Positions 25,501 to 39,518 of a stretch of 39,518 bases of DNA are shown one piece after another. Each line of letters opens with the position of its first letter. Position 1 is the first letter of the stretch. The DNA comes from a virus: UHGV virus genome UHGV-0040088; one strand, written 5' to 3'. The notes under the pieces were generated by a model. It was given only the letters and a program-made list of their open reading frames with translations. It had not been told where the DNA came from and did not search any database. Both the position numbers and the translations under genes were made by a program.

Positions 25501-28076
25501 AAGAGAAAAAAGCAACGGCTGAATCACTGAAAACCATCACGGCAGAAATGAACACGATGGATTCCAACCTTAAAGGTCAGATCTCCAGTGTGGAACGCGC
25601 AGTGGCTGACGAGGCTAGTGCCCGCGCTGAAGCTATTAACGGTGTGAACGCCTCAATAAGCAATCTCGACAAGAAAACGGATGCCAGCGTCAATAGGCTT
25701 GATCAGGCTATTGCAGATGAAACGAACGCCCGCACACAGGCGGTCAGTGACGTTAACGCAAGTATCTCGGTACTTGATAAGAAAACTGACGCCAGCGTTA
25801 AACGCCTGGATCAGGCAATCGCTGACGAAACCAGCGCAAGAACCGAAGCTATCAGTGGCGTGAACGCATCAATTTCAACGCTTGATAGCAAAGTGGAAAG
25901 CAATATAACGCGCATAGATAAAGCTATTGCAGATGAAACGCAGGCGCGTACAGACGCAATAAGCGGCGTCAAAGCGAGCATTAACACACTTGAAGGCAAC
26001 ACCAATTCAGAAGTTAAACGTCTGGATCAGGCAATCGCTGACGAGGCCAGTGCCCGCACACAGGCGGTAAGTGATGTAAAAGCATCAGTAAGCAACCTTG
26101 AAAGCAAAACTGACGCCAGCGTTAAACGCCTGGATAAAGCTATTGCAGACGAAACAAGCGCACGCAGCGAAGCTATTAGTGGGGTAAATGCCTCAGTATC
26201 AGCGCTCGACAAGAAAACCGATTCAAGCATAAGCCGCCTTGATAAAGCCATTGCGGATGAAACAAGCGCGAGAACCGAAGCCATCAACGGTGTGAATGCG
26301 TCAATTTCCACACTCGACGGCAAGGTTACAAGTAACGTTAGCCGCCTTGATAAAGCAATATCAGACGAAACGAAGGCAAGAAGCGACGCAATAACAGAGG
26401 TTAAAGCAGACTTAACAACGCTTGAGAACAGCACAAACGCCAGCGTTAAGCGTCTTGATCAGGCAATTGCCGATGAATCAAGCGCCCGCGCACAAGCAAT
26501 ATCAGGACTCAGCGCAAATCTTGGCACTGTTGAAAATAATGTTGGCAAAAACAGCGACGAAATAAATCAGGCAAAAGCAAGCCTGCAAAACGCATCTATT
26601 GCACTTATCAATAACTCAATCGCTCAAACCAACACGCGTGTTACTCTTTCAGCCCAATACAAGAAAGGAATCAGAGAAACCAACGCGAAAATTGACCGCA
26701 TTGACAATGTTGTAGCAGAAGAGAAAAAAGCAACGGCAGAAGCCATTAGCGGGGTAAGCGCATCGATCACCGATCTTGATAAGAAAACTGAAGCAAGCGT
26801 TAACCGCCTTGACAGGGCGATTGCAGACGAAACAAGCGCCCGCAGCGAGGCTATCAGCGGCGTGAATGCGTCAATTTCCACGCTTGATAGTAATGTGAAA
26901 AGCGACATTACCAGGATGGACAAAGCCATCGCCGATGAAACAAAAGCACGCGCAGACGCAATAAGCGGCCTTAGCGCATCGCTTACCAGTACGATCAACT
27001 CAAAAGTGTCTGAAGTGTCAACGGCACTTTCTACGCATGAGGAATCAAGTGCAGAAAAATTTAGCCAGATCTCGGCGTCTTTCGAATCAGTAAACTCAAG
27101 CATTACAGAATGGTCGCAGGCAATGGCTACAGCAGATAAGGCGTTGTCAACGAAAATTGATCAGCTAACAGTGACTGTTAACGGGAATAAGACGGCAATA
27201 GAGACGACATCTAAAGCGTTAACCGACTTTAAGGGTAATGTTGATGCGTCATATTCAATTAAGCTCGCCACCGACAACAACGGCATGAAATACGCAACAG
27301 GTATGTCACTTGGCCTTACTGGTGATGGGACCAACTTTCAGTCGCAGTGTATTTTCCTTGTTGACCGCTTCGTGTTAATGACTGACGCTAACGGTTCGTA
27401 TCAAACGCCTTTCTATGTAACTAATGGCGCAATGTATGTAAGAGAAGCGTTTATTAAAGACGGCACTATCAACTCCGCCAAAATAGCTGATCTAATACAG
27501 TCAGTTAATTATAGCTGGGAAGGCGCGACAGGATGGGCGATAAATAAAAACGGTAACGCAGTATTTAACCAAGTAACCGTAAGGGGGACGGTATACGCTA
27601 ATGCTGGTGTGTTTAACGGTACTGTTTACGCAACTGGCGGTAAATTTACTGGAGCAGTTGAAGCCACAAGTTTTGTTGGTGACGTAGCAAGTATGTCAGT
27701 GATAAACGAGAAAGTATTTCCGTCAATGAGGGGGAGCGGCAGCAGGGAAACTTCAAAAACTTATCTTGATTCAAGTTCATCAAGTTTATCAAAAACCGTT
27801 TACGTTATGATTCCGTATGATTTGTCATACTATACACATAGTGAATCTTCTCGTATCAGCGTAACTATAAACATAAACGGACACGCAAAAACAATTAATA
27901 TAGAAAGGCCAGCATCAGGTCCATCAATGTCATCTGTCGCGGTGCACTGTGTACATGACCTAACATACCCAACAATTACAGTCAAGGTTACGGAAAACTT
28001 TACCAATACATCCGCTGCATCAATAAGAAAACCAGGCTTGATACTTATAACAAGAAGTTCAGGAACATGGGTATAA
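22527..28076 (+). CDS. J: tail tip / host specificity protein J (lambda gpJ-like) with greatly expanded central coiled-coil repeat region
   Basis: N-terminal about 800 aa align block by block with lambda J as recalled (SEGPIYGP, YHLRG..YSG, YCDQ..GYGG..EPR, FGCTSRGQAYRAGKWL). 1849 aa versus about 1130 for lambda J. Confidence 0.9.
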   Translation: MSSGGGKAKTPTLLNDNLYHKQFYRVLDILSEGPIYGPVNQKAPLNDVMLNDTPVTDANGNTSIPGISVAWRNGTADQSPINGFNAIESTVIVNAKVTHDTPIIRTVSDPNVTRVRLNLGVDALVQSDEKGNQYNTSVMLMVDVKPSSSSTWSLIKDIHIGPGKQSGEYLEAHIIKAPDEKPFDIRVRRVTADSHGDLLRNDTRWSSYSEIIDDNLSYPHTAVAGAVIDHDQYTDTPTRTYHLRGLIVDVPDNYNTETRAYSGLWLGGFKKAYTNNPAWIFRYLVKNERFGLAKHAGYIDVDDGALYVLSQYCDQLVDDGYGGLEPRMTLNAYITEQMSARDLLDNIAGMFRGIALWDGQRLTVMIDAPQDPIATITNANVVDGAFTRSSLPLAECYNAVIVSWTDPENGWEQSKEYVADDELIARDGYNETTLEAFGCTSRGQAYRAGKWLIETAKREPSKFTFKMARDAIHFTPGDIIEILDNNRAGARLGGRIVANNGRVITVDKVDSEYIAPGDTISLLDSDGKFKKHQITGVSGNKITLASAPAWIRNGTVFAVSTNAAKPVLCRIVSVAETENNSVYTIEAAQHDPHKQAVVDNGAIFEVNNDTLNHFRVPNIENLKVLNIGSETVQCRATWETLTTTHRLTFEIRVYNSAGAVVKSYETTNYSYDFYGIDAGTYSLGIRGRNDTGMKGAESIVDLVIGAPAAPVGVNWVPGVFQATVYPISRTTLTTDTSYEFYYSGEKQITDPASVTTKAQYTGRGHQWTFGGMNTGHTYYVYVRTRNAFGVSDFVEASGKPTENFDEISDYVTKDVMNSEQFKEMIGDIKDLGDRTDVIENATNELKAATDNLKTATDNLTNITDDLRTETDNLTNITEDLRNDTDNLITETGSIKADTDTLKKETEDLYKKVKENADDIGQHESRIDSLEVSSEKVGSELAQAKASLQNASLALINNSLAQTNTRVTLTAQYKKGRTETKAEIDRIDNVIAEEKKATAESLKTITAEMNTMDSNLKGQISSVERAVADEASARAEAINGVNASISNLDKKTDASVNRLDQAIADETNARTQAVSDVNASISVLDKKTDASVKRLDQAIADETSARTEAISGVNASISTLDSKVESNITRIDKAIADETQARTDAISGVKASINTLEGNTNSEVKRLDQAIADEASARTQAVSDVKASVSNLESKTDASVKRLDKAIADETSARSEAISGVNASVSALDKKTDSSISRLDKAIADETSARTEAINGVNASISTLDGKVTSNVSRLDKAISDETKARSDAITEVKADLTTLENSTNASVKRLDQAIADESSARAQAISGLSANLGTVENNVGKNSDEINQAKASLQNASIALINNSIAQTNTRVTLSAQYKKGIRETNAKIDRIDNVVAEEKKATAEAISGVSASITDLDKKTEASVNRLDRAIADETSARSEAISGVNASISTLDSNVKSDITRMDKAIADETKARADAISGLSASLTSTINSKVSEVSTALSTHEESSAEKFSQISASFESVNSSITEWSQAMATADKALSTKIDQLTVTVNGNKTAIETTSKALTDFKGNVDASYSIKLATDNNGMKYATGMSLGLTGDGTNFQSQCIFLVDRFVLMTDANGSYQTPFYVTNGAMYVREAFIKDGTINSAKIADLIQSVNYSWEGATGWAINKNGNAVFNQVTVRGTVYANAGVFNGTVYATGGKFTGAVEATSFVGDVASMSVINEKVFPSMRGSGSRETSKTYLDSSSSSLSKTVYVMIPYDLSYYTHSESSRISVTININGHAKTINIERPASGPSMSSVAVHCVHDLTYPTITVKVTENFTNTSAASIRKPGLILITRSSGTWV
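25581..27010 (+). repeat. in-frame tandem repeats (36 aa / 108 bp, about 12 copies) inside J
   Basis: Repeated unit approximately V(K/N)RLDxAIADETxARxxAIsGVNASISxLDxKTDAS; the array is split by a second copy of a block (AKASLQNAS..IDRIDNV..EEKKATAE) at about 25358 and 26570. Confidence 0.85.
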
Positions 28077-28079
28077 AAA

Positions 28080-28108
28080 TAACCCCGCTTCGCGCGGGGT
28101 TTTCTTTT
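28080..28108. terminator. bidirectional terminator between J and minus-strand lipoprotein gene
   Basis: A-rich run, stem ccccgc/gcgggg, then TTTTCTTTT. Confidence 0.65.
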
Positions 28109-28346
28109 AGTAGTTAGCTACACAGTTAGAAGGGCTACCGATGCGGCGCATGTTGTGATCGAGTTCATGACACCATTGACCAGTATAAGGCAGTTTTTCA
28201 GTGTCATAGACAAGATGACCTTCACCATCATAGACAACATCTTGTGGAATTACTCCGCTATTCGGCAGGTTATGCAATGCGGCCTCTTTGTCAACAGCGC
28301 AACCAGTAAGAGCTACGGCCGCAGAGAATAAAACCACTTTGAACAT
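28107..28346 (-). CDS. small lipoprotein (79 aa), possible receptor-blocking superinfection exclusion factor
   Basis: Signal peptide with lipobox LTGC (MFKVVLFSAAVALTGC); function inferred from position between the J and fiber genes. Confidence 0.6.
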   Translation of the reverse strand: MFKVVLFSAAVALTGCAVDKEAALHNLPNSGVIPQDVVYDGEGHLVYDTEKLPYTGQWCHELDHNMRRIGSPSNCVANY

Positions 28347-28491
28347 GTTTTTTCATTTTTTAATCCTCGTTCTTGTTAGCTCGTCCGGTTCATCCGGTGT
28401 CTTGAATATCCGACAAAACAACATTTCGTATATTGATATAAATCAACAAATACATTTTGTGTAAGCAGAAAATGCAACACAGATCACAAAA

Positions 28492-28500
28492 TGGTAGAAT
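28492..28500 (+). promoter_or_regulatory. candidate extended -10 promoter (TGgTAGAAT) upstream of tail fiber gene
   Basis: TG-n-TAGAAT 34 nt upstream of the fiber start codon. Confidence 0.3.
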
Positions 28501-28533
28501 TATTCCGTTAATTAACAAAATGGAGTCATCGAG

Positions 28534-31500
28534 ATGATTTACACAACTGGAACAGTTGCCATTAACGGCAATACTGTTAAAGGCACGGGAACAAACTTTT
28601 CCGCGCCGCTTTCTCTTATTCGTGTAGGTTGCACGCTCATTGCTGTTGGCAATCCTGTGCAGATCTTTACCATCACGGAAATTAAAAGCGGCACTGAACT
28701 GTTAGTGACGCCAGCAGCTAACCCCGCAATCCCTGCCGGGACAAAATTTAGCATCCTGCTATCTGATTCGATCTCAGTTGATGGGCTTGCTCAGGACGTA
28801 GCTGAAACCCTGCGTTACTACCAGAGCAAAGAAACAGAAATCGCCTCCGCCGTAGAGTGGTGGAATGAGATCGGCGGCGAAGGTCAGTTGGATCAGCTTC
28901 TTACCAACATTCGCGCAGAAACAGCCAAATCAACCGCTAACGCTCAAAAAACAGAAACTGACAAAAACGCAGCAGAAGCGTCAAAAACAGCGGCTGCAAA
29001 ATCCGCCACGGCAGCGAAAACATCAGAAACCAACGCTAAGGCAAGCGAGACGGCAGCGAAAACAAGCGAAACCAAAGCCAAAACATCAGAGGACAGGGCG
29101 CAAGAATATCTGAATCAAATGGGAAGGCTTACCAGCCCAATGGTCCAATGTGCTTGGCCTGTTGAAACTAGCGGTAATGGCGCTTACGTTAAGATTGCTA
29201 AACTTAGCGATCCAAAGTCATCAGACTGCCACTTAACGCTAATGGTTACAAATGGCGGTGGCTACGGTTTAAGTTACGGGAATATTGACTTTATAGAGAT
29301 CTCCGCTCGAGGTCTTAACGACACAGGCGAAGTAACCAGTGAAAATATATCTAAATTTTTAAGTATTCGCCGACTCGGTTCACCAAACCTTCCCAATAAT
29401 AGTCAAATGTGTTACGGCCTGGTTAAAGGTGACGGCTATATCGAGGTCTGGTGCTACCAGCGATCTTATATTAAAAACACAAAAGTAGCGGTGCTGGCGC
29501 AGACTGGCAACACGGAATTATACATTCCTGAAGGATTTGTTAAGCAAGCCGACGCACCCGCTGGATATATTGAAAGCCCAGCAGCAAGGATTTACGACCA
29601 GGTAAACAAACCCAGCAAGGCAGATCTGGGCCTTTCTAATGCTATGCTTACAGGCGCTTTCGGTCTTGGCGGTAGCGGGATATCAACAACCGGCAAGATG
29701 AGCGATGTAGAGATCTTAAAAGCTCTGCGTGACAAAGGTGGTCATTTCTGGCGCAGTGATAGGCCGACCGGAAGTACGGCGACCATTTATAGCCGCGGTT
29801 CTGGTATATTCTCGCGGTGCGGCGATACGTGGTCGGCGATCAATATCGACTACGGAACAGGTAAAGTCAAGGTTTACGCTGGTAACGATGGTGGACTTAA
29901 TAGTGGTAATTTTTCCGTCAATGAGCTATACGGAACCAAAAATAAACCGTCGAAATCGGACGTTGGACTTGACAACGTAACCAACGATGCACAGGTTAAA
30001 AAATCCGGCGACACCATGACTGGCGACCTGTCGATCACTAAAGCAACACCTTCGATATACATTCGTTCAAAAAGTGGAACCGCCCATGTATGGTTCCAGA
30101 ATGAGGATCAATCGGAACGCGGTGTTATCTGGGCGCCTACCAATTCCGAAGGACTTGGCGAAGTTCACATCAGGGCCAAAAATACAAAAGGTGAATCAAC
30201 TGGTGAACTCATTGTTCGTCACGACGGGGAAATTAGGGTTCCCAGTCTCACAGCGAGTAAAAAAATAAAAGGCGCAACCGCAGATTTTACAAACACATCA
30301 GAAACCACGACGGAGAACACGTTAAAAATCAGCGGTAAGCAGCATACACCGTTAGTTTTAACGCGTACCGGGTATTCTGAAAACCTGTCCATTGGCTTCA
30401 AGGTTGATAACGTTGTTCAAAAATACCTCGGTATTAATAGCGGTGGGGATCTGTGTTTTGGTGATTATGCCGATCACAAAACAAACAGCAAAGTTATCAC
30501 GCAAGCAGTGCTTGATAGCGGTGTGACGGTAGGCGGTCAGACAACCTTTTCTAAACTTGCCACATTTAGCAAAGGCATGACCGGGCCTATCGTACCGGAA
30601 GGGCTTGACTCACGTACCATTGATCTTAATGACCTAATCATCAATGGTTCAGATATAGGATCGGTCAAATACTATCAATGTACATCTTCCAGTGGTGGAG
30701 CGAACATTACCAACAAGCCTGACGGCGTAGGCGGTAACTTCTTGCTGCGTGTAGAGTCAGTCCGTAAAGTTAGTGATACTGACTATATAAGTATGCAAAC
30801 ACTGACTAGTGGCGACAAAGAACGCGTATTTGTTCGTTTTAATACTAATAGTAAGTGGACAGCATGGTGTGAACCTGTTGTATCGGGATGGAAGCAGGAT
30901 GTGTCTGTTAAGACGCTAACAGCAGCCGAAGACGTCATCCTTAAAAACAGTGATACTGGTCCGCGCCTTATTTTAAGGAACTCTAACACATCGGCGCAGT
31001 CGTGGAGTGTAAGGGTGTGGGGTGAAAGCGGAAGGGAAAGCGTTTTTGAGGTTGGTAACAGCAATAGTTACATGTTCTATGCTCAGGAAGATGCAGCAGG
31101 AAACAAGAAATTTGACTTTAACGGTGATATTTCATGTAAGACGCTATATCAAACTTCTGACCAGAGCCTTAAAGACAACATTAAGGTTATAGGTGACGCC
31201 ACCGAATCCATCCGCAAAATGAATGGGTACACCTACACGTTTAAGGACGATGGCCTGCCTTACGCTGGCGTTATTGCACAGGAAGTAATGGACGCGCTGC
31301 CTGAAGCGATAGCGTTTACCACTCTTTGCGGCAAGGAGCTACAAGGACCAACAACTGACGGCAACATCTTACGCGAGGAAATGAAGTGCCTCAGCGTTGA
31401 CTATGCGGCGGTGACTGGTTTACTTGTCCAGGTGGCACGCGAAACGGATAACCGCGTCACCGAACTGGAAGAGGAGAACGCAAGCCTGAAAGCTAACATT

Positions 31501-31569
31501 GCCGCAATGGATGAGCGGATAGCAAAACTTGAAGCGCTTATCAGTCAGTTGACCGGAAGCGAAGAATAA
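28534..31569 (+). CDS. side tail fiber protein (Stf-like N-terminus) with C-terminal intramolecular chaperone (peptidase S74-like) domain
   Basis: N-terminal KTSETNAK-type Ala/Lys/Thr/Ser repeats as in lambdoid Stf fibers; C-terminus SDQSLKDNIKVIG...NGYTYTF... then a coiled coil, as in self-cleaving chaperone domains. Confidence 0.85.
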   Translation: MIYTTGTVAINGNTVKGTGTNFSAPLSLIRVGCTLIAVGNPVQIFTITEIKSGTELLVTPAANPAIPAGTKFSILLSDSISVDGLAQDVAETLRYYQSKETEIASAVEWWNEIGGEGQLDQLLTNIRAETAKSTANAQKTETDKNAAEASKTAAAKSATAAKTSETNAKASETAAKTSETKAKTSEDRAQEYLNQMGRLTSPMVQCAWPVETSGNGAYVKIAKLSDPKSSDCHLTLMVTNGGGYGLSYGNIDFIEISARGLNDTGEVTSENISKFLSIRRLGSPNLPNNSQMCYGLVKGDGYIEVWCYQRSYIKNTKVAVLAQTGNTELYIPEGFVKQADAPAGYIESPAARIYDQVNKPSKADLGLSNAMLTGAFGLGGSGISTTGKMSDVEILKALRDKGGHFWRSDRPTGSTATIYSRGSGIFSRCGDTWSAINIDYGTGKVKVYAGNDGGLNSGNFSVNELYGTKNKPSKSDVGLDNVTNDAQVKKSGDTMTGDLSITKATPSIYIRSKSGTAHVWFQNEDQSERGVIWAPTNSEGLGEVHIRAKNTKGESTGELIVRHDGEIRVPSLTASKKIKGATADFTNTSETTTENTLKISGKQHTPLVLTRTGYSENLSIGFKVDNVVQKYLGINSGGDLCFGDYADHKTNSKVITQAVLDSGVTVGGQTTFSKLATFSKGMTGPIVPEGLDSRTIDLNDLIINGSDIGSVKYYQCTSSSGGANITNKPDGVGGNFLLRVESVRKVSDTDYISMQTLTSGDKERVFVRFNTNSKWTAWCEPVVSGWKQDVSVKTLTAAEDVILKNSDTGPRLILRNSNTSAQSWSVRVWGESGRESVFEVGNSNSYMFYAQEDAAGNKKFDFNGDISCKTLYQTSDQSLKDNIKVIGDATESIRKMNGYTYTFKDDGLPYAGVIAQEVMDALPEAIAFTTLCGKELQGPTTDGNILREEMKCLSVDYAAVTGLLVQVARETDNRVTELEEENASLKANIAAMDERIAKLEALISQLTGSEE

Positions 31570-31598
31570 GAGGTGATGTGCGAAGAACATCGCCGCGC

Positions 31599-31628
31599 GA
31601 AACGAGGCTAACGCCTCGTTTCTTTTTA
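31599..31628. terminator. terminator between tail fiber gene and convergent minus-strand early operon
   Basis: 10-bp stem gaaacgaggc/gcctcgtttc, loop taac, then TTTTTAT. Confidence 0.65.
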
Positions 31629-31773
31629 TGTACCAAATAGTGACCAAATACCCAAAACCAAAAACAAAAGCACTGTAACATACTGTTTTATAAATTATTA
31701 TTCACAAAGCTAACCATTCCAAGCATACGGCAGATGGCAGGGCGACCAAGAAGAATTGTTGTCGTTTTATCCA

Positions 31774-32436
31774 TTATCTTTTCCCCGTGTATTCAACGTG
31801 TCCGATACATCCATCAATAATAGCTTGCGCCATATTGCGATAATCGCACGAAAAATCATTGTCACGGCTAAAGTCAATCTCGCTTGCCGCATCTTCACCC
31901 ATTACCTTAGTGGCAAGTGCGAACGCTATTTCAGCGAGCGCCTTTTCTTTCGGGTCAATGTGAATGCGGTAAGAGTATTTCTTCCATGCTACAGTTGTTT
32001 CCGTTTCTGATACTAATTTACTGTGAGCGATAGCCCAATTATCACCGAGATATAAAAACTTAACGACATCGATAACCGTTCCGCTCGTAAGTCCTACACA
32101 ATCAAGCCACACACCAACCGGAGGCTTTTCACATGCCAGCCATTCCGTTTTTTCAGGTTGTGTTTCGCAATCATGGTGCTCATCTTCGATTAATTCATCA
32201 ATAATTTCACTTTCTTTATTCATACCGTCATCATCCTTATTCGATAAATTGGCGTATTTATCAAATTTCCAGCTTGCAGCCATAACCGAATAAGTGCCGC
32301 CAGTGTCAGCGCGAACACCCAATAAATAGTATGATCCAAAATTATATTCCGTGTGGCATGTTGTTACCTCAAACGATGGGTAACACTCAGGGTTGGCGCG
32401 ATGGCTAATCACGCCAATTGCTTTAAGTTTATTCAT
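31774..32436 (-). CDS. hypothetical protein (220 aa), last gene of the minus-strand operon
   Basis: ORF in track; acidic central region; no recognisable motif. Confidence 0.55.
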   Translation of the reverse strand: MNKLKAIGVISHRANPECYPSFEVTTCHTEYNFGSYYLLGVRADTGGTYSVMAASWKFDKYANLSNKDDDGMNKESEIIDELIEDEHHDCETQPEKTEWLACEKPPVGVWLDCVGLTSGTVIDVVKFLYLGDNWAIAHSKLVSETETTVAWKKYSYRIHIDPKEKALAEIAFALATKVMGEDAASEIDFSRDNDFSCDYRNMAQAIIDGCIGHVEYTGKR

Positions 32437-32450
32437 TTGCTTATCCTCAA

Positions 32451-32627
32451 TTACGCCACAGTTACATTGTCAACTTTGATAAAATATTCAGGATGGTTTT
32501 CTATTTCGTGCTGAAAGTGCGCGTGGCACAATCGCCAATCACGCGCCTGGTTGTGAAAATAGTAAACATATTCGCCATCAATCTTATATAAAATTCCTGT
32601 AGGTTTAGCCATGTAGTAACGAACCAT
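32451..32627 (-). CDS. hypothetical small protein (58 aa)
   Basis: TAATG stop/start overlap with NinB; the track start at 32681 would overlap NinB by 55 nt. Confidence 0.4.
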   Translation of the reverse strand: MVRYYMAKPTGILYKIDGEYVYYFHNQARDWRLCHAHFQHEIENHPEYFIKVDNVTVA

Positions 32628-33058
32628 TATCGCCCCCAGCGTTTTATAAATTCCTCGTTTAACTTCGTATCGCCAGACCACTGAACACCATGTTCCGCGC
32701 CGAACGAGTAGATCAGTTCGATTAATTCGCTAAATTCTGCTTTACTCATCCGGCTGGTTGACGTACCCAGCACAACAAAACCTGATTTATCCAGGTTAGG
32801 GACAACGCCATATTTCTTAAGCCCGGCAGTAAATACCGCTTTCCAGTCTTCCGACGACAGCTTTTTGCCGTACCAATTAACCTGATCGCTAACGTCTGTC
32901 AGCAGCGCCCAAAGCAACGCGTTTTGACTCAGCGAGCGGGTTTTCTCCTTGATGGTAATTACCAGCGGGCTTTTGCTATCAGGCTGGATCTCCTTTATCT
33001 GTCTGATAGCGTTTTCTTTTACGGCGTCGTTAACTATTTCAAACCTTATTTGCCGCAT
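32627..33058 (-). CDS. ninB: recombination protein NinB (lambda Orf family)
   Basis: Block similarity to lambda NinB as recalled: RSLSQNALLWALLTDVSDQVNWYGKKL / RSLDQNRKLWACLGDVSRQVEWHGRWL; VVPNLDKSGFVVLGTSTSRM / VVPNLAGNGFVVIGQSTSRM. Confidence 0.85.
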   Translation of the reverse strand: MRQIRFEIVNDAVKENAIRQIKEIQPDSKSPLVITIKEKTRSLSQNALLWALLTDVSDQVNWYGKKLSSEDWKAVFTAGLKKYGVVPNLDKSGFVVLGTSTSRMSKAEFSELIELIYSFGAEHGVQWSGDTKLNEEFIKRWGR

Positions 33059-33067
33059 AATATCAAC

Positions 33068-33628
33068 TCAAAACAATTGCAATTGAAAACGTTCGCTGAC
33101 TTCTTTCATTAACTGCTTAACATGTTTCTTATCACGCTTTCGCTGAGTTAACAGGCGGCTTCCAACCTTGCCGACCGTTTCGCTATCAGTAGCAAAACTG
33201 CTTACTGCATTCATTACCTGTTCACAGCTTGCGCCGCAACAAATAAGACCCTTAACGTGTTCAGCCATGTCATCATGTGTTTTAGGTTTTTCTCCGTAAT
33301 AGCCATTATGACGAATAGATGGCAATACTTCCTCAAACACCCAATCCTGGAAGCGTTCGGCTGATTCAAGTTTTGAATGCATAATCAAGCGGAAAACATC
33401 CGGTTCGTAAATCAGGCCAACTCCTTTCGGCTTGAATCCGAATCCTAATTCTCGCGTTTTGCGAGAATCAAGTTTAATCAATGATTTACAGTGTTTTTTA
33501 ATAGCATCATGCTCGTTCTTATAACCTAACGCGCGAGCAACATTAACAGCAACAAAAGCTGGCTTATCTGCATAAATAACCGTTTGCACTTGTTTATCAT
33601 CAAACGAGAATTTAACAACCTTATTCAT
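33068..33628 (-). CDS. Bro-N domain protein (antirepressor-like), paralog 1
   Basis: N-terminal roughly 105 aa are about 75 percent identical to 37744..38481; typical Bro-N pattern (KPAFVAVNVARALGY); unrelated C-terminus. Confidence 0.8.
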   Translation of the reverse strand: MNKVVKFSFDDKQVQTVIYADKPAFVAVNVARALGYKNEHDAIKKHCKSLIKLDSRKTRELGFGFKPKGVGLIYEPDVFRLIMHSKLESAERFQDWVFEEVLPSIRHNGYYGEKPKTHDDMAEHVKGLICCGASCEQVMNAVSSFATDSETVGKVGSRLLTQRKRDKKHVKQLMKEVSERFQLQLF

Positions 33629-33818
33629 GTTTTACCCCTTTATAACTTTCGTTTCGCGCCTTCATAATCATTTGAAGGCTGATTAATTTAGAAGAAGTCA
33701 TAAAAGCGCTTTTTAAGTACCTCATATCAACAACAACAGGATTATCAGGATCGCCGCCGCGCATGTATTCCGCAATTGTGCTTAAGTCTTCAACTGTCAA
33801 TTCCAATTCACTGTTCAT
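33621..33818 (-). CDS. hypothetical small protein (65 aa)
   Basis: AAGGGGG SD before the internal ATG; the longer track ORF lacks an RBS. Confidence 0.35.
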   Translation of the reverse strand: MNSELELTVEDLSTIAEYMRGGDPDNPVVVDMRYLKSAFMTSSKLISLQMIMKARNESYKGVKHE

Positions 33819-33828
33819 GATCGCCCCC

Positions 33829-34035
33829 TTACACAATCCGCATTGTGTTTCGTAATTCTCCGCGCAACGCCCGTAATGCATCGCGCATCGGCACGAAAAC
33901 CCGGTTAAATTTTACGTGTTTATATTTCCGCATTAGTGGCGGCGTATACACCATTGCGTCGTATACTTCCCACGGATAATAAACACGCGTATCGTCAACA
34001 AACGTTTCAACTGAATAAAAAATTACACGCCTCAT
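33829..34035 (-). CDS. hypothetical small protein (68 aa)
   Basis: ORF in track within the tightly packed operon; weak SD. Confidence 0.3.
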   Translation of the reverse strand: MRRVIFYSVETFVDDTRVYYPWEVYDAMVYTPPLMRKYKHVKFNRVFVPMRDALRALRGELRNTMRIV

Positions 34036-34049
34036 AGTTCCAACCCCGT

Positions 34050-34559
34050 TTAACCGTTAAGTTTTTCAATCTCAAATACTGGTTTATCAGGCAGTAGGCC
34101 GTTATCTTTACGGTATTCGTTTAATAAGTTACTAAAATTAAATGCGACAACATTTGAATAACCATAAAAACGCGCGTTTCTGAAAAAATATTTACCGTCA
34201 AACTTATTAACAGTTAGTAGGTTCTCACTTCCTAACATCCGCAATATTCTGCCGACCTTTCCTTTGTTTATATTAATATTCAATTCATTCTTAACATCTT
34301 CCGCTGAAAAATACCCGCTACTATTTGAAAACAAAGGGATTATATCCCTTATCGCCATTTCCCTTACTGACTTCAAGCAATATGATAATCTTTTACTATT
34401 TAGATCTACTTTTATAATAACGCCATCAGAAACCAAAGCATCCAAAGCGCAAATTATTTCACCTTCCGGTCCAGGAATAGATTTAACTATCGTTCCCTCA
34501 CCTGAAATAACAGCGTCATTTAAAAAATCAATTATTTGTTGCTGGTATGAAGTTTTCAT
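34050..34559 (-). CDS. hypothetical protein (169 aa), AT-rich, possibly two winged-helix-like segments
   Basis: GAGG SD before ATG 34559; visibly AT-richer than flanking genes; segment KGKVGRILRMLGSENLLTV resembles a recognition helix. Confidence 0.5.
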   Translation of the reverse strand: MKTSYQQQIIDFLNDAVISGEGTIVKSIPGPEGEIICALDALVSDGVIIKVDLNSKRLSYCLKSVREMAIRDIIPLFSNSSGYFSAEDVKNELNININKGKVGRILRMLGSENLLTVNKFDGKYFFRNARFYGYSNVVAFNFSNLLNEYRKDNGLLPDKPVFEIEKLNG

Positions 34560-34635
34560 TTTTAGCCTCGTTTTAAACGCGAAAACAGCCACCAGAAAGC
34601 GGTAAACTTTCCGGCAAGCTGTTTGCTAATATTGA

Positions 34636-36051
34636 TTAAAAAGATGCGTTATTCTGATTGTTTCGTTGGTTAAATCGGCTTGCGCGATGATTCATAGACT
34701 GAATACATGCAGACGCTGCGCGGGCCTGGTCACAAGGGAGGATATTGCCGTTGTCATCAAACCGCTGGTAAACAGTACCAGTTTTCCCGTGACGGTTTTT
34801 AGATACAATTATTTCCATGTATTCGCGTGCTACAGACTGCTCATCGTAATAACCATCGCGGTAAACCATGATGATCCTGTCAGCGTCTTGCTCAAGGTTC
34901 CCTGAATCTCGAAGATCTGAATTATTAGGGCGCTTGTTAGGTCGTTCCTCAACGCGGCGGGATAACTGGGCCAGCGCCAACACTGGTACGCGCAATTCTT
35001 TCGCCATCATCTTCAACGACCATGACAATTGCCCTACAGCGAGATCGTGACGTTCGGCTTTAGCCAGCTTCATTAAACCGATGTAGTCAATCATTACCAT
35101 GCCCAGGTTTGGGTGATCCTGCTTCATGCGTTCCGTTGTTGCGCGTATTTCCTCAACCGTTAACTGCGACGCGTCAACGATCCACACCTCAAGATTAGCA
35201 AGTGCGCTCATACCCTGGCCGACATGCGCCCAACCCTCATCATCAAGTTTTACCGGATTGCGCAGGCAGTCAGTTGATAAATTACCAGCGCCAGCAATGG
35301 CCCGTTCAGTCATCTGATCGAGTGACATTTCAAGCGTAAACAGCAAAACGCCTACCCGCTGACCTTCGCCACCAGGGTAAGGGCGCTCGGCAGCCTCGCG
35401 AGCAATTGCAAGCGCCAACGCAGATTTACCAGACCCAGGACGTCCGGCGAGAAGTACCAAATCAGTAGCGTTAATTCCGCCTAACATTTCGTCGAGTGGT
35501 TCTATACCTGTTTTGATGTTGTCAGAATTGACACCGCATTCCATGCGCTTGCTTAAAACGTCCGTATACTCCTGTACCGCATCACGCAACAGAACCGGAA
35601 TGATCTTGTCTTTCGTTACCTTTAATTTTGAATACCGGGAATCAAAATCTTTCATCGTCTCTTTGACGACTTCAAGCGTCCCCGTTTCCAGCTTGTAGCG
35701 CATATCGTCGATGAGTTCCAACATCTGCCGCCGCTGGTGCTCTTCACGTAGTAGCTGTGCGTATCCCTTCAGGTTGGCAGCAGAAGGACACGATCGCGCC
35801 GTTTGCATTAGCGGTACAAAGTTTTCATTGCCAATCTCATCGCCAACTAATAACGCGTCGATAAGATTCCTGTTTCTGGCTTGCGCCCGGATAACTTCAA
35901 ACGCACGTTTATAAAGCGGGATCGTGAACACTTCAGGATCAAGTGTGGCGAGAACATCTTGCGCGTTAGGAGTAAGGCCACCTAACAGTAGCCCGCCGAT
36001 AACTGACGCTTCACGTTCCTGCCGTAGTGAGTTTATTTGCTCAGTTACCAT
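34636..36051 (-). CDS. replicative DNA helicase (DnaB family)
   Basis: 471 aa; Walker A GRPGSGKSALAL; DnaB-like N-terminal domain and RecA-like core. Confidence 0.9.
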   Translation of the reverse strand: MVTEQINSLRQEREASVIGGLLLGGLTPNAQDVLATLDPEVFTIPLYKRAFEVIRAQARNRNLIDALLVGDEIGNENFVPLMQTARSCPSAANLKGYAQLLREEHQRRQMLELIDDMRYKLETGTLEVVKETMKDFDSRYSKLKVTKDKIIPVLLRDAVQEYTDVLSKRMECGVNSDNIKTGIEPLDEMLGGINATDLVLLAGRPGSGKSALALAIAREAAERPYPGGEGQRVGVLLFTLEMSLDQMTERAIAGAGNLSTDCLRNPVKLDDEGWAHVGQGMSALANLEVWIVDASQLTVEEIRATTERMKQDHPNLGMVMIDYIGLMKLAKAERHDLAVGQLSWSLKMMAKELRVPVLALAQLSRRVEERPNKRPNNSDLRDSGNLEQDADRIIMVYRDGYYDEQSVAREYMEIIVSKNRHGKTGTVYQRFDDNGNILPCDQARAASACIQSMNHRASRFNQRNNQNNASF

Positions 36052-36085
36052 TATGTTATTGCCTCCGGTTTACAAAATGGAAAAT

Positions 36086-36592
36086 TCAGGGTAAAGAAAT
36101 ACCGTGATTGCTATGAAAGTTATACATTCTTTCAGCTTCTTTTCTTGCTTTTACGGCATCATCAAATGAGTCACCGTAATAAACGTATATTGTTTTCTTT
36201 TTCCCATCAGACCCCCTTATACCTATTTGCGCGCGCCATTTATTAGTTTTCTTGTTCCATGTAACGCCAACGCATCCGCTGGTGTTACTTGATGGTATTG
36301 TTTTATTTCTGTTGTTCTCCCTCCTTGTAACCATCCTTAAGTTTTCGATTCTATCATCGCCAGGCACATGATTTATGTGATCTATTTCCATTCCATCAGG
36401 GATAGGGCCGTTAAACATTTCCCAAATAATGCGGTGACGCCATGTACAACACACACCATTAACGCGGATAGTCCAATATCCGCTATGATGCCTACTTCCA
36501 GCAACGTCACCGGCTTTTGTTTTGTTATTTGCGCGGTTACAAGACCAATATAGAACACCGTCCCTATAGGTAAATAAATCATCCCACATCAT
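36086..36592 (-). CDS. HNH homing endonuclease (HNH plus AP2-like)
   Basis: Motifs HRIIWEMFNGPIP, DHINHVPGDDRIENL, CVGVTW..KWR; start at internal ATG 36592/36589; third paralog in the window. Confidence 0.8.
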   Translation of the reverse strand: MMWDDLFTYRDGVLYWSCNRANNKTKAGDVAGSRHHSGYWTIRVNGVCCTWRHRIIWEMFNGPIPDGMEIDHINHVPGDDRIENLRMVTRRENNRNKTIPSSNTSGCVGVTWNKKTNKWRAQIGIRGSDGKKKTIYVYYGDSFDDAVKARKEAERMYNFHSNHGISLP

Positions 36593-37709
36593 GACACACC
36601 ACCATTTCAGGCCTATATACAAAGCGACCAATTTCGCCATAATCAGGACTGTAAATGATAACCGCCGCGCAACGTTGCGATCTCCATCCTCCATTAGTTG
36701 AATAAGCGTCTTTGCCCGCTAACGTGCCGTGGTGTTCAACTATGCCTATAGATGATTCTGTTACTGATTTATGGTGCAAATGTCCGACATGGACGTAAAC
36801 ATATTTCGACTTGCCGAAATCCTCGCGCCAGTCAGCTACGCAAGCAGCCAATAAATTTTCCGGCTTTTTAATAGTGTGCCCGTGGTGGTAAGCAAGAAAT
36901 GTTTTACCGTACTGCGTGTGGTGGACGATAGCAGGTGACACATCAACCGTCACGCGCGGTTCATCTTCGTAAAAAGCCGCCAGCGCCGCACGTAGCCAAA
37001 TCATGCCTGACTGATCGTGATTGCCTGACAACACCTGGATTTCAACATCCTTATGATTTAACAACATTTTACCTACCGCCCGCCGGACAGACCGGATCGC
37101 CACATAAACAAGTTTTGCGTAGCGACTATCTTGATCAAGAATGTGCCCGCTTATTGGCGTCACCGGGACCATACCGTCAGAATGAAGCAGATCGCCACCG
37201 AGGAGCAGTACGGCTTTTTCAGACATCGGAGCAGCGCCAACAGCGTAGTCAAAGAAGTCATTCAACACGCGCTCAGCGATCCCAGTGTCGTAGCTCTCGC
37301 CGCATTCAGCTTTATGAGCAAGCGCCCCGATATGCAGATCAAACACCGGATAAAGGGCCAGGCTTTTTTGAAAATCAATTTCAGGCACTGGCACAGCCTC
37401 CGCGCGTGGTATTTCATCCGTGAAAGCGTCGCGGGCCGCTTCCATTAACTGTTCCATTTCGTCGCGGTCACGGGCTGTTTTAATCCAGCGCATGATCACA
37501 TTGCCATCCTTATCGACGAGCAATGACTCAGCATTGACGCCAAAACCCGGTGCGCGACGCGTGGATATTAAACCGCGTTTCGCCAGTTTTGCGCCTAGCC
37601 GCTCGACGTTGCGTTTTGACATGCCATATTTTTCAGCGATCTGCTTGTACGTTAAACCGTTGTTATATTCAGCGATCAATTGCTCATCGCTGATTTTTCT
37701 TTGTGACAT
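36579..37709 (-). CDS. HTH domain fused to calcineurin-like metallophosphoesterase
   Basis: N-terminal HTH (LTYKQIAEKYGMSKRNVERL); phosphoesterase motifs DLH, GGDLLH, GNHD, GHLHH in canonical order. Confidence 0.75.
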   Translation of the reverse strand: MSQRKISDEQLIAEYNNGLTYKQIAEKYGMSKRNVERLGAKLAKRGLISTRRAPGFGVNAESLLVDKDGNVIMRWIKTARDRDEMEQLMEAARDAFTDEIPRAEAVPVPEIDFQKSLALYPVFDLHIGALAHKAECGESYDTGIAERVLNDFFDYAVGAAPMSEKAVLLLGGDLLHSDGMVPVTPISGHILDQDSRYAKLVYVAIRSVRRAVGKMLLNHKDVEIQVLSGNHDQSGMIWLRAALAAFYEDEPRVTVDVSPAIVHHTQYGKTFLAYHHGHTIKKPENLLAACVADWREDFGKSKYVYVHVGHLHHKSVTESSIGIVEHHGTLAGKDAYSTNGGWRSQRCAAVIIYSPDYGEIGRFVYRPEMVVCHDVG

Positions 37710-37743
37710 AGTGTCATTTCCTCACGAATAACAAATTGTATAC

Positions 37744-38481
37744 TTAGTTGCAAGTTAAAAGCTCAGTGATCCATACTTGTCCTTTAGCAGTGAATACAGC
37801 CTGCTCATATCCATCGTGAGTTACCCTCATTTCACCGTAGCCCTCATCAATAAACCACTGACTGAATACACGGCGGCGACAGCGAAGATCATAAACACCA
37901 ACCGCCGAAAGTTTTCTGTTTAATTTTACGGCTGACATTCCCAGCGGTTTAGCTACCTCTGAAGCCGTTCGGTGCATATCGTTTTTGACTATCGCGTCAC
38001 ATACAGCCGCTTTCGGAGCCAGCACTTTATTTTCAAGCGCAAGACGTTCATTTTCTTGCTTAACTAACAATTTTTGCTCGTATTCATTAGCCCACGCCCG
38101 CGCCGCTTCCGCAGGGTTAGAGAAGTCAGGCAAAGCAGGTTTGCAACCGTAACACCCATTTTCACGCAAAGCCGGAAGAACCTCCTCGCACACCCAATCC
38201 TGGAAGCGCTCGGCTGATTCTAATTTTGATCTCATAACAAGACGGTATATATCTGCCTCTCGAATTATAATTATGCCTTTTGGTCTGAACCCAAAACCTA
38301 ATTCCGTTGTTTTAACGGAATCAAGTTTAATCAATGACTTACAATGTTTTTTAATGGCCTGATGCTCGTCGTTGTACCCCAGCGCACGGGCCACATCAAC
38401 CGCAACAAAAGCAGGTTTACCGTCATAAATTACAGCAGTGATTTTATTGTCATCAAAATTAAAACACATCAACTCAGACAT
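37744..38481 (-). CDS. Bro-N / KilA-C antirepressor-like protein, paralog 2
   Basis: Bro-N N-terminus (KPAFVAVDVARALGY) and ANT/KilAC-like C-terminus; GGAGA SD before ATG 38481. Confidence 0.8.
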   Translation of the reverse strand: MSELMCFNFDDNKITAVIYDGKPAFVAVDVARALGYNDEHQAIKKHCKSLIKLDSVKTTELGFGFRPKGIIIIREADIYRLVMRSKLESAERFQDWVCEEVLPALRENGCYGCKPALPDFSNPAEAARAWANEYEQKLLVKQENERLALENKVLAPKAAVCDAIVKNDMHRTASEVAKPLGMSAVKLNRKLSAVGVYDLRCRRRVFSQWFIDEGYGEMRVTHDGYEQAVFTAKGQVWITELLTCN

Positions 38482-38729
38482 TGTAATTTCTCCGTAAAAC
38501 GCTCTACAACGCAAAAATCCCACCGCGTAACCCGTTTGCACAGGTTGCAGTGTCTTATTGCGCCAGAGGCGCTATCAGGTGGCTAATTTTCGATTTACAG
38601 ACTGGTATGTAGGTTATGGATTGATTAGCAGGTACAAACCGCCGAACAAAGCGACGTTAACAGCGATTGCAGCAGCGATGGCAAAGGCCAGGGCGAAAAC
38701 GTGTTTACCGTCCATTTTTTAAATCCTCT

Positions 38730-39368
38730 CTAAAACGAATTATTAGAAACGAATTTTCTGTATGGCTTAGGTAACGAAGGAGTGTTGCCGCCAAATAACA
38801 ACCTTATCGCATTAACAGAAAACTCAACATACATAAACGGTTCACCATCAGCATGATAGCCAACCTGTTGGCGAGCAAGCCCGCGAAGCGCCATAGACGG
38901 CGTAACAATCCAGCCATTATCAACCTTTTGAACCATGCCCAGCTTTGCAGCAGCCTTATAAACTTCACCAGACTTTCCAGGCAAGATTTTCCCTGGAGTA
39001 AGGAATACACCCTCAAGCATGTTGATCAGGCAATCATTTTCCTTGCGTAACTGCGCTGCCTCTTTCTCTCTTTCGATGAAGTAGTCACGAACCGCGCGCC
39101 CCTTAGGTGTGTGCTGGATCATCGCAATGTGTTTTGCTGCCTCAACAGTCAGAAAATATTCAGATGCTGGGCGGCCTCCATCCAGGTTATGAACATTTTT
39201 GTTCAAAACCTCAAAATCCAAAGACTTACGCAACCCGCACGCCTTTATCTGACGCTTTATCCACATGTGATAAGGAGTTTTAACACCCATTGCCTCATGT
39301 AACTGGCGACCGTCAACAGCCTCGCGCGTAACGCCGTCCATATCCTTAACAACAATATCGAACTTCAT
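38730..39368 (-). CDS. phage regulatory protein Rha-like (putative antirepressor)
   Basis: N-terminal segment VDGRQLHEAMGVKTPYHMWIKRQI matches the Rha-family pattern; GAGAGGA SD. Confidence 0.65.
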   Translation of the reverse strand: MKFDIVVKDMDGVTREAVDGRQLHEAMGVKTPYHMWIKRQIKACGLRKSLDFEVLNKNVHNLDGGRPASEYFLTVEAAKHIAMIQHTPKGRAVRDYFIEREKEAAQLRKENDCLINMLEGVFLTPGKILPGKSGEVYKAAAKLGMVQKVDNGWIVTPSMALRGLARQQVGYHADGEPFMYVEFSVNAIRLLFGGNTPSLPKPYRKFVSNNSF

Positions 39369-39518
39369 TTCAAAATCCTCTCTAAAACGCTCTCTAACGA
39401 GCTAAACCGCTAAAGATATGCAATCGTAGCACCATGCGTGTTTTAGCTCGCTGGTGAGCTTGTTTTGTGGGTAATTTTTGATTTTTGCTGATCGTGGTTG
39501 GTCAAAGAGCGCCACATC

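Follow-up and report, generated by a model that had tools for sequence, protein, structure and literature searches.

What does a protein that joins a helix-turn-helix (HTH) to a phosphoesterase do next to the replicative helicase of a temperate gut phage? The question is raised by a 39,518-nucleotide (nt) stretch of the virus genome UHGV-0040088, the whole of which is called the window below. Ahead of a DnaB-family helicase gene, the window encodes a 376-residue protein with an N-terminal HTH and the motif set of a metallophosphoesterase (MPE). An initial annotation suggested that this protein stands in for a replication initiator or helicase loader and could not be assigned to a characterized family. 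We find that the gene belongs to a known, catalogued, and very widespread phage family, PHROG 704, which is experimentally uncharacterized, rather than being an unassignable novelty. In our judgment the best explanation, at a probability of roughly 0.4, is an HTH-tethered stand-alone nuclease that would process phage replication or recombination intermediates, not a replication initiator.

Gene and Catalytic Motifs

The gene and its catalytic core are located as follows.

36579..37709, minus strand: HTH-MPE gene, ATG start, 376 residues, PHROG 704 member and homologue of phage T1 ST16
36612..37361, minus strand: MPE catalytic core, residues ~117-366, motifs I-V

Read from the sequence, a Shine-Dalgarno-like GAGGAAA lies ~8 nt 5' of the ATG, and a scan for promoters and terminators returned nothing distinguishing the MPE gene from the rest of the operon. 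The signatures DLH, GGDLLH, GNHD, and GHLHH are found at residues 124, 171, 229, and 309, respectively, and motif IV is HHGH at residue 275. The core residues are accordingly D124xH126 (motif I), GGD173LLH176 (II), GN230H231D (III), H276 (IV), and GH310LH312 (V). To these the family adds a conserved loop of its own, T184...L191-D192-x-D194-x-R196.

Conservation was assessed in an alignment of the query with 92 representatives (93 sequences) that are 30-56% identical to it. Nine residues (D124, H126, G172, D173, T184, N230, H231, H276, and H312) are invariant across this alignment, and H176, D178, D232, and H310 are kept in at least 90% of the homologues. All of the metal ligands (D124, H126, D173, N230, H231, H276, H310, and H312) are present and either invariant or at least 96% conserved, and the conserved set comprises the canonical MPE ligands plus the catalytic histidine of motif III. 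Because the ligands are conserved across the homologues, we regard the motifs as genuine and not as chance occurrences.

Profile searches alone do not classify the catalytic domain. Pfam Metallophos gave no match to the query protein even at E<=10, and Pfam and NCBIfam scans of it yielded sub-threshold HTH matches only. Metallophos and Metallophos_2 were reached at E<=0.01 by 21/93 and 17/93 relatives, respectively. Since the query itself has no Metallophos match, its assignment rests on the motifs, the family conservation, and the predicted fold. The domain search that the initial annotation had proposed gave a match to PHROG 704 and a recognizable HTH in relatives, with the HTH of the query remaining below threshold and its MPE domain unmatched. 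The architecture had been seen correctly, as the 376-residue reading frame, the N-terminal HTH, and the complete motif set were all borne out by the located motifs, the conserved ligands, and the structural model.

Predicted Structure of the MPE Core and N-Terminal Modules

An AlphaFold2 model built from the 93-sequence alignment had a mean predicted local distance difference test (pLDDT) score of 93.6 and a predicted template modeling (pTM) score of 0.76. It places two modules ahead of the catalytic core.

37569..37697, minus strand: N-terminal tri-helical HTH domain, residues ~5-47; predicted helices 8-16, 21-28, and 32-44, pLDDT 82-94
37410..37547, minus strand: family-specific beta-hairpin plus helix, residues ~55-100; strands 56-65 and 71-80 and helix 82-97 in the model

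Residues ~117-366 adopt the beta-sandwich that defines the MPE superfamily, and the chain ends ~10 residues past this core. Structure comparison identified nucleases as the top fold neighbors of the model. A linker of lower confidence connects the three-helix bundle to the beta-hairpin.

The HTH is the most divergent module of the family (21% mean identity vs 40% for the MPE core). In the query it gave weak, sub-threshold Pfam matches over residues ~10-55 at E ~1e-3 (Rrf2, Sigma70_r4_2, Crp, MarR, and similar). It is clearer in relatives, where a Pfam census of members found Sigma70_r4_2 (1.5e-9) and GerE (2.4e-8) as well as HTH_1, HTH_8, HTH_23, and HTH_28. The family profile reached GerE/LuxR-type HTH structures among Protein Data Bank (PDB) sequences at E 0.016; PDB searches, whether started from the single sequence or from the profile, were otherwise also marginal, returning GerE-type HTH, Mre11/SbcD, and a Pseudomonas putida nuclease MPE at E 0.016-1. 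The hairpin contains the near-invariant residues G69 and W75, each found in at least 94% of aligned members, and this segment is kept even in family members that have no HTH (e.g., P0127, P0196, and P0222).

Family Membership and Distribution

Residues 4-370 of the protein match positions 2-389 of the 390-position phrog_704 profile ("DNA repair exonuclease") at E 3.2e-143, that is, end to end, and ST16 of phage T1 matches the same profile at 7e-155. The counterpart of PHROG 704 among the pVOGs is VOG9929, and the family is labeled "DNA repair exonuclease" or "putative phosphoesterase." Query and family have the same architecture according to the alignment, the model, and the Pfam census, namely an HTH, a G/W beta-hairpin, and an MPE core with the T184/LDxDxR loop. 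The nearest record is the gene mEp515_12 ("hypothetical") of the temperate Escherichia phage mEp515, whose product is 98.7% identical, and full-length identity to ST16 is 57%. Four public contigs encode exactly this protein.

By tblastn the protein was found in 2,039 of 50,697 phage records, mostly from T1-like Drexlerviridae, Klebsiella Webervirus, and Salmonella Jersey-like phages, and also from phages of Vibrio, Campylobacter, Flavobacterium, and Rhodobacter. Its annotation in these records varies between "hypothetical," "DNA repair exonuclease," "phosphoesterase," "phosphatase," and "oxidoreductase." Among 1.84 billion cluster representatives (clusters at 50% identity), searched exhaustively with HMMER, 4,598 related clusters were recovered at E<=1e-3 and 1,008 at E<=1e-30. 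In the BFVD viral structure library the model matched only family members and remoter uncharacterized phage MPEs. The name "DNA polymerase II small subunit" carried by metagenomic relatives mirrors fold similarity and is not functional evidence, and "DNA repair exonuclease" as a name for PHROG 704 is likewise a computational annotation. An exonuclease-holin-endolysin-spanin module has been reported in 508 of 522 Drexlerviridae genomes (~97%; PMC13164509).

Our literature search found no experimental work, biochemical or genetic, on the function of the PHROG 704 protein. A phage transposon sequencing (Tn-seq) preprint includes neither T1-like phages nor the PHROG 704 gene, and two further preprints proved to concern other proteins: the metallophosphatase mentioned in the Metis preprint belongs to a host defense protein, and the "Conserved folds" preprint deals with Mre11-Rad50 fusions. 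The statement that the protein fits no characterized family thus holds in the experimental sense, although it matches phrog_704 over its whole length and has relatives in 2,039 records.

Those who described the mEpimmI group, of which the host phage is a member, term it non-lambdoid (PMC11893012), so the lambdoid framing of the locus does not apply. Compared with most relatives, the copy studied here is unusual in residing in a temperate mEpimmI genome rather than in a virulent T1-like phage and in lying next to DnaB.

Comparison with Characterized Metallophosphoesterases

T1 ST16, mEp515_12, and the remainder of PHROG 704 do not differ in kind from the query, which has their architecture and invariant residues and is a member of the family. 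Motifs II and III of the query have Mre11-like forms. Mre11/SbcD possess a C-terminal capping domain, whereas the model of the query has none, and they act with a Rad50/SbcC ATPase partner, whereas the neighboring genes here are Ant, HNH, and DnaB. The HTH and beta-hairpin, in turn, are absent from Mre11, and sequence similarity to Mre11/SbcD is marginal (E 0.18-0.5). Archaeal PolD DP1, a 3'-5' proofreading exonuclease, aligns with the query through the MPE core alone (204/440 residues). Both DP1 and the eukaryotic polymerase B-subunits have an OB-fold and a polymerase partner, in contrast to the query, which has no OB-fold and no adjacent polymerase gene. The lambda NinI-type (PPP) Ser/Thr phosphatase is of the same superfamily and is encoded in a phage early region; the PPP signatures GDxHG, GDxVDRG, and GNHE and a PPP-type fold were sought in the query and not found.

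Among phage proteins of this superfamily, T5 A1, which acts in second-step transfer and in host DNA degradation, is reported to be both necessary and sufficient for the latter (bioRxiv 10.64898/2026.04.02.716235). Like the query, A1 is a putative MPE with the same reported structural neighbors, and its gene has core status in its virus family. It differs in its length of 556 residues, an extra middle region of ~250 residues, its membership of PHROG 1745, and its position as a pre-early gene of a virulent phage. Homology between query and A1 was not demonstrable beyond the superfamily (hhalign probability 17% with the single sequence and 20% with the family profile), and A1 was not in the top 50 viral fold matches of the query model. 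Gp48 of mycobacteriophage A10ZJ24, a Cluster A MPE, has the five motifs and demonstrated phosphodiesterase and DNase activity, and it breaks down DNA both in vitro and in vivo (PMC12287305). This MPE is short, with its motif I already at residue 10, and has neither HTH nor hairpin; it is likened to the query as a functional precedent only. As the profile-profile comparison gave no significant A1 homology, we treat A1 and Gp48 as analogues of the query, not as relatives.

The A1 family has invariant residues of its own (GD304xH306, HD340, SN396H397, H476, and H501xH503) that resemble a complete MPE motif set. Several distant relatives of A1 (A1 being L012 1709-3376 and the relatives P0343-P0385) have an N-terminal HTH of the HTH_23, HTH_38, HTH_7, or CENP-B N type. 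The pairing of HTH and MPE may on this basis recur among phage nuclease-like MPEs, possibly through convergence.

A Replication Initiator Beyond the Window Edge

The absence of an O/P-like gene from the window had been part of the case for an initiator or loader role. This absence is literally true, and its cause is visible in a 33,970-bp gut-metagenome contig (L004) that encodes the exact MPE protein. Window positions 26579-39518 correspond to L004 21131-8192 at 100% identity (12.9 kb), and beyond this point the contig continues into an initiator gene of which the window holds only the tip.

39502..39518, minus strand: 3' end of an O-like replication initiator gene, last 17 nt only; full gene L004:7177-8208, 343 residues

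The 343-residue HTH_36 protein matches the initiator families phrog_428 (7e-37) and phrog_8540 ("O-like," 5e-33) and also phrog_345, 391, and 270. Inside its gene, at L004 7453-7588, lies an array of approximately six tandem iterons of 22-23 nt (GGGGGTAGTGACACAGAGTCACC), all of them with GTGAC/GTCAC dyad symmetry inside, and an A-rich segment follows the array. In lambda, too, the origin is arranged as iterons inside the O gene, and the array with its A-rich stretch is likely to be a lambda-style origin. A search for iterons and repeats in and around the MPE gene revealed nothing origin-like, and the MPE protein had no match to initiator PHROG or Pfam families beyond the generic HTH.

The gene order on L004 begins with a LexA-like repressor (HTH_3 plus Peptidase_S24), from which diverge an 81-residue gene, the 343-residue HTH_36 gene, AntA, Ant, HTH-MPE, HNH, and DnaB. 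At the same place mEp515 and related E. coli prophages have an alternative initiator, composed of an HTH_36/DnaD_N protein and a Lin1244_N protein. The presence of a different initiator at the same position indicates that the initiator module has been swapped among relatives and the MPE-DnaB pair kept constant. The "missing initiator" is an effect of where the window ends, and the replication module here is not initiator-less.

Gene Context in This Lineage and in Other Phages

Two genes 3' of the MPE gene bear directly on its context.

34636..36051, minus strand: DnaB-family replicative helicase (DnaB_C 1.1e-75, DnaB N-terminal domain 5e-12, phrog_19 1e-109)
36086..36592, minus strand: HNH_3 homing endonuclease gene (HNH_3 E 1.4e-21 plus AP2-like domain; L004 11118-11624)

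The MPE gene does lie upstream of the helicase, as first described, though the HNH gene intervenes, its start overlapping the MPE stop by 14 nt. In related prophages the HNH gene is absent and 18 nt separate the MPE stop from the DnaB start. We found the MPE gene in 35 of 5,426 complete E. coli genomes, always on the chromosome. All three of the prophages inspected have the order divergent repressor, HTH protein, Lin1244 initiator, variable slot, and MPE, followed after the 18-nt gap by DnaB, a conserved hypothetical protein of about 175-185 residues, NinB, and later an integrase. This constant order marks the MPE-DnaB juxtaposition as a stable feature of the lineage; the two antirepressor-like genes and the HNH gene of the window are insertions.

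Phages of other lineages have the MPE gene in other surroundings. T1 has it as the last gene of a helicase-Dam (methylase) cluster, ahead of HNH, SH3, and the lysis genes. In aalborv the holin gene comes after it; RcJoli (Casjensviridae) encodes it past the lysis genes, and one Vibrio siphophage has endolysin genes on either side of it. A Jersey-like Salmonella phage has it in a small unit among tail genes, and in the Ackermannviridae Vibrio phage BX-1 it precedes the primase. No Rad50/SbcC-like gene was present beside the MPE gene in any context inspected, nor in the T1 annotation. Since the helicases of T1 are of the DUF3987 and SF2 types and not DnaB-family, we reject a functional coupling of MPE to DnaB across the family. 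The argument from position, which had given the gene special significance as occupant of the initiator or loader slot, accordingly does not generalize to phages in which the gene is near lysis genes (T1-like phages and RcJoli), tail genes (Jersey-like), or primase (BX-1).

The temperate gut coliphage and virulent T1 (L007 40822-41955) have the protein at 57% identity with different flanks, DnaB in the one and HNH, SH3, and lysis genes in the other. Full-length identity of this degree despite differing flanks suggests horizontal exchange of the MPE gene between temperate and virulent siphophages.

Proposed Function and Alternatives

In the mechanism that we propose, the PHROG 704 enzyme would be a stand-alone protein of two modules, its N-terminal HTH tethering to DNA an MPE module that would act as a binuclear-metal (Mn/Fe-type) phosphodiesterase resembling Mre11, SbcD, and PolD DP1. 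So tethered, the MPE would hydrolyze DNA phosphodiester bonds without an ATPase partner of the Rad50/SbcC type. In the temperate mEpimmI-group coliphage its gene would be expressed along with that of the DnaB-type helicase, as part of the early-right operon, and the enzyme would process DNA ends or replication/recombination intermediates during lytic growth. We infer DNA as the substrate, the nuclease activity, and the biological role alike. A DNA-tethered lone nuclease is favored by an intact, invariant catalytic center, by the closest folds, which are those of nucleases, by Mre11-like motifs II and III, by the HTH of the family, and by the core status of the gene. The DNA-binding nuclease among the roles first suggested for the protein consequently remains, from sequence and model, the best reading. 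Co-transcription with the helicase favors the processing of replication/recombination intermediates, and ~97% persistence in Drexlerviridae is more in keeping with a core function than with an accessory role. The context also supports DNA metabolism, given the DnaB adjacency in three of three E. coli prophages, the BX-1 primase, and the T1 helicase-methylase cluster. By analogy, Gp48 and T5 A1 serve as precedents for phage MPEs that act on DNA.

The same precedents underlie the main alternative, itself rather unlikely, in which the HTH-MPE would attack the bacterial chromosome early in lytic growth, shutting off the host and supplying nucleotides. T5 A1 degrades host DNA, shares the reported structural neighbors, and has some HTH-bearing relatives; host DNA is also broken down by the MPE DNase Gp48; and PHROG 704 is core in virulent T1-like phages, where the gene is often solitary and not in a replication module. 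T1 host DNA degradation is a genetically defined function, that of gene 2.5, for which we claim no link to ST16; a literature search on that gene and on the breakdown of host DNA by T1 had no result. Weighing against such a role are the lack of sequence homology to the A1 family beyond the superfamily, the absence of A1 from the leading viral fold matches, and the location of the gene here in a temperate phage and in direct coupling to DnaB. Wholesale degradation of host DNA is not typical of temperate phages, and there is no indication of how the phage's own DNA would be spared. We consider it unlikely, too, that the family amounts to a new class of self-sufficient, HTH-guided Mre11/DP1-like nuclease, working without a Rad50-type ATPase and either associated with the replisome through the phage helicase or acting as the factor by which T1-like phages degrade the host chromosome.

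The remaining alternatives have a lower probability. A small-molecule phosphodiesterase or regulator, which we think quite unlikely, would cleave cyclic or linear signaling nucleotides, Ap4A, or NAD-derived molecules, possibly in counter-defense, with the HTH making the protein a substrate-responsive transcription factor or autoregulator. Counter-defense genes are usually variable accessories, whereas the MPE gene is in ~97% of Drexlerviridae; a PADLOC scan matched no defense model and gave noise only, on the HTH (E > 0.02); and the top fold neighbors are nucleases. It is very improbable that the protein is an initiator or helicase loader, its HTH binding the origin and the protein recruiting or loading the DnaB-type helicase. 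An O-like initiator gene with internal iterons and an A-rich region is found a short way upstream, truncated at the window edge, and the MPE gene and its surroundings have no iterons. Invariant catalytic residues would moreover be needless in a purely scaffolding role, and the 57%-identical protein is core in T1-like phages that have no DnaB-family helicase and keep the gene beside lysis genes. Finally, the protein could be a lambda NinI-type (PPP) phosphatase that acts on Ser, Thr, or Tyr of proteins and has nothing to do with DNA, given the common superfamily and the position of the MPE gene upstream of ninB in the window, the lambda nin region carrying a PPP-type phosphatase gene. This reading conflicts with both the motifs and the fold ranking and is the least credible of the alternatives, its chance being slight.

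Neighboring Genes and Insertions

The other genes of the early-right region that were examined are listed here.

33068-33628, minus strand: second Bro-N antirepressor-like gene, early-right operon
34050-34592, minus strand: protein directly 3' of DnaB, 169-180 residues, conserved in all relatives examined
37744..38541, minus strand: Bro-N/KilAC antirepressor-like gene (Bro-N 1e-21, ANT 1e-10); the L004 gene call starts at window position 38481
38730..39368, minus strand: AntA-type antirepressor-like gene (AntA 1.3e-19, phrog_5817 2.9e-31)

The Bro-N/KilAC and AntA-type genes both occupy a variable slot that separates the MPE gene from the initiator. In relatives this slot holds a BRO gene, a zinc-ribbon protein gene, or nothing, and this variability gives it the appearance of a moron-like insertion site. 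The protein encoded directly 3' of DnaB had no significant Pfam or PHROG match, only weak sub-threshold Dimerisation/HTH matches; as part of the MPE-DnaB-X block it could be a helicase accessory factor.

HNH_3 genes lie directly 3' of the MPE gene also in T1 (ST15, 43% identical) and in Vibrio phage 98E28-6b (35%), and their occurrence there in several phages suggests that the 3' flank of the conserved MPE gene is a recurrent homing site. The sites compared were L013/L014/L015 6119-6138, L007 42028-42510, and L009 5208-5717. The MPE protein ends in ..RPEMVVCHDVG here, in ..YPEYSIL in the related prophages, and in ..RPEMF in T1.

Further along, mEp515 and the E. coli prophages have a tyrosine integrase gene 3' of a 220-residue reading frame whose counterpart in the window is 31774-32436. 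In the window only ~200 bp (31569-31774) separate this frame from a convergent gene for a 1011-residue Peptidase_S74 tail spike. A tblastn search with the mEp515 integrase found no match in the window, so the integrase is elsewhere in the genome or missing from it.

Significance for the Family

This copy of the gene will not surprise a phage genomicist, but the family is a worthwhile target among functionally uncharacterized phage genes. With 4,598 clusters and occurrence in 2,039 sequenced phages, PHROG 704 belongs to the more widely distributed phage genes that lack an experimentally established function, and the Drexlerviridae include many candidates for therapy against Klebsiella, E. coli, and Salmonella. 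Its substrate and role, once defined, would correct or confirm thousands of annotations, and the role would show how an Mre11-type nuclease core works with an HTH instead of a Rad50 clamp. Should PHROG 704 indeed represent a new class of nuclease, a single characterized protein would give a function to a core gene of the Drexlerviridae and to several thousand related clusters.

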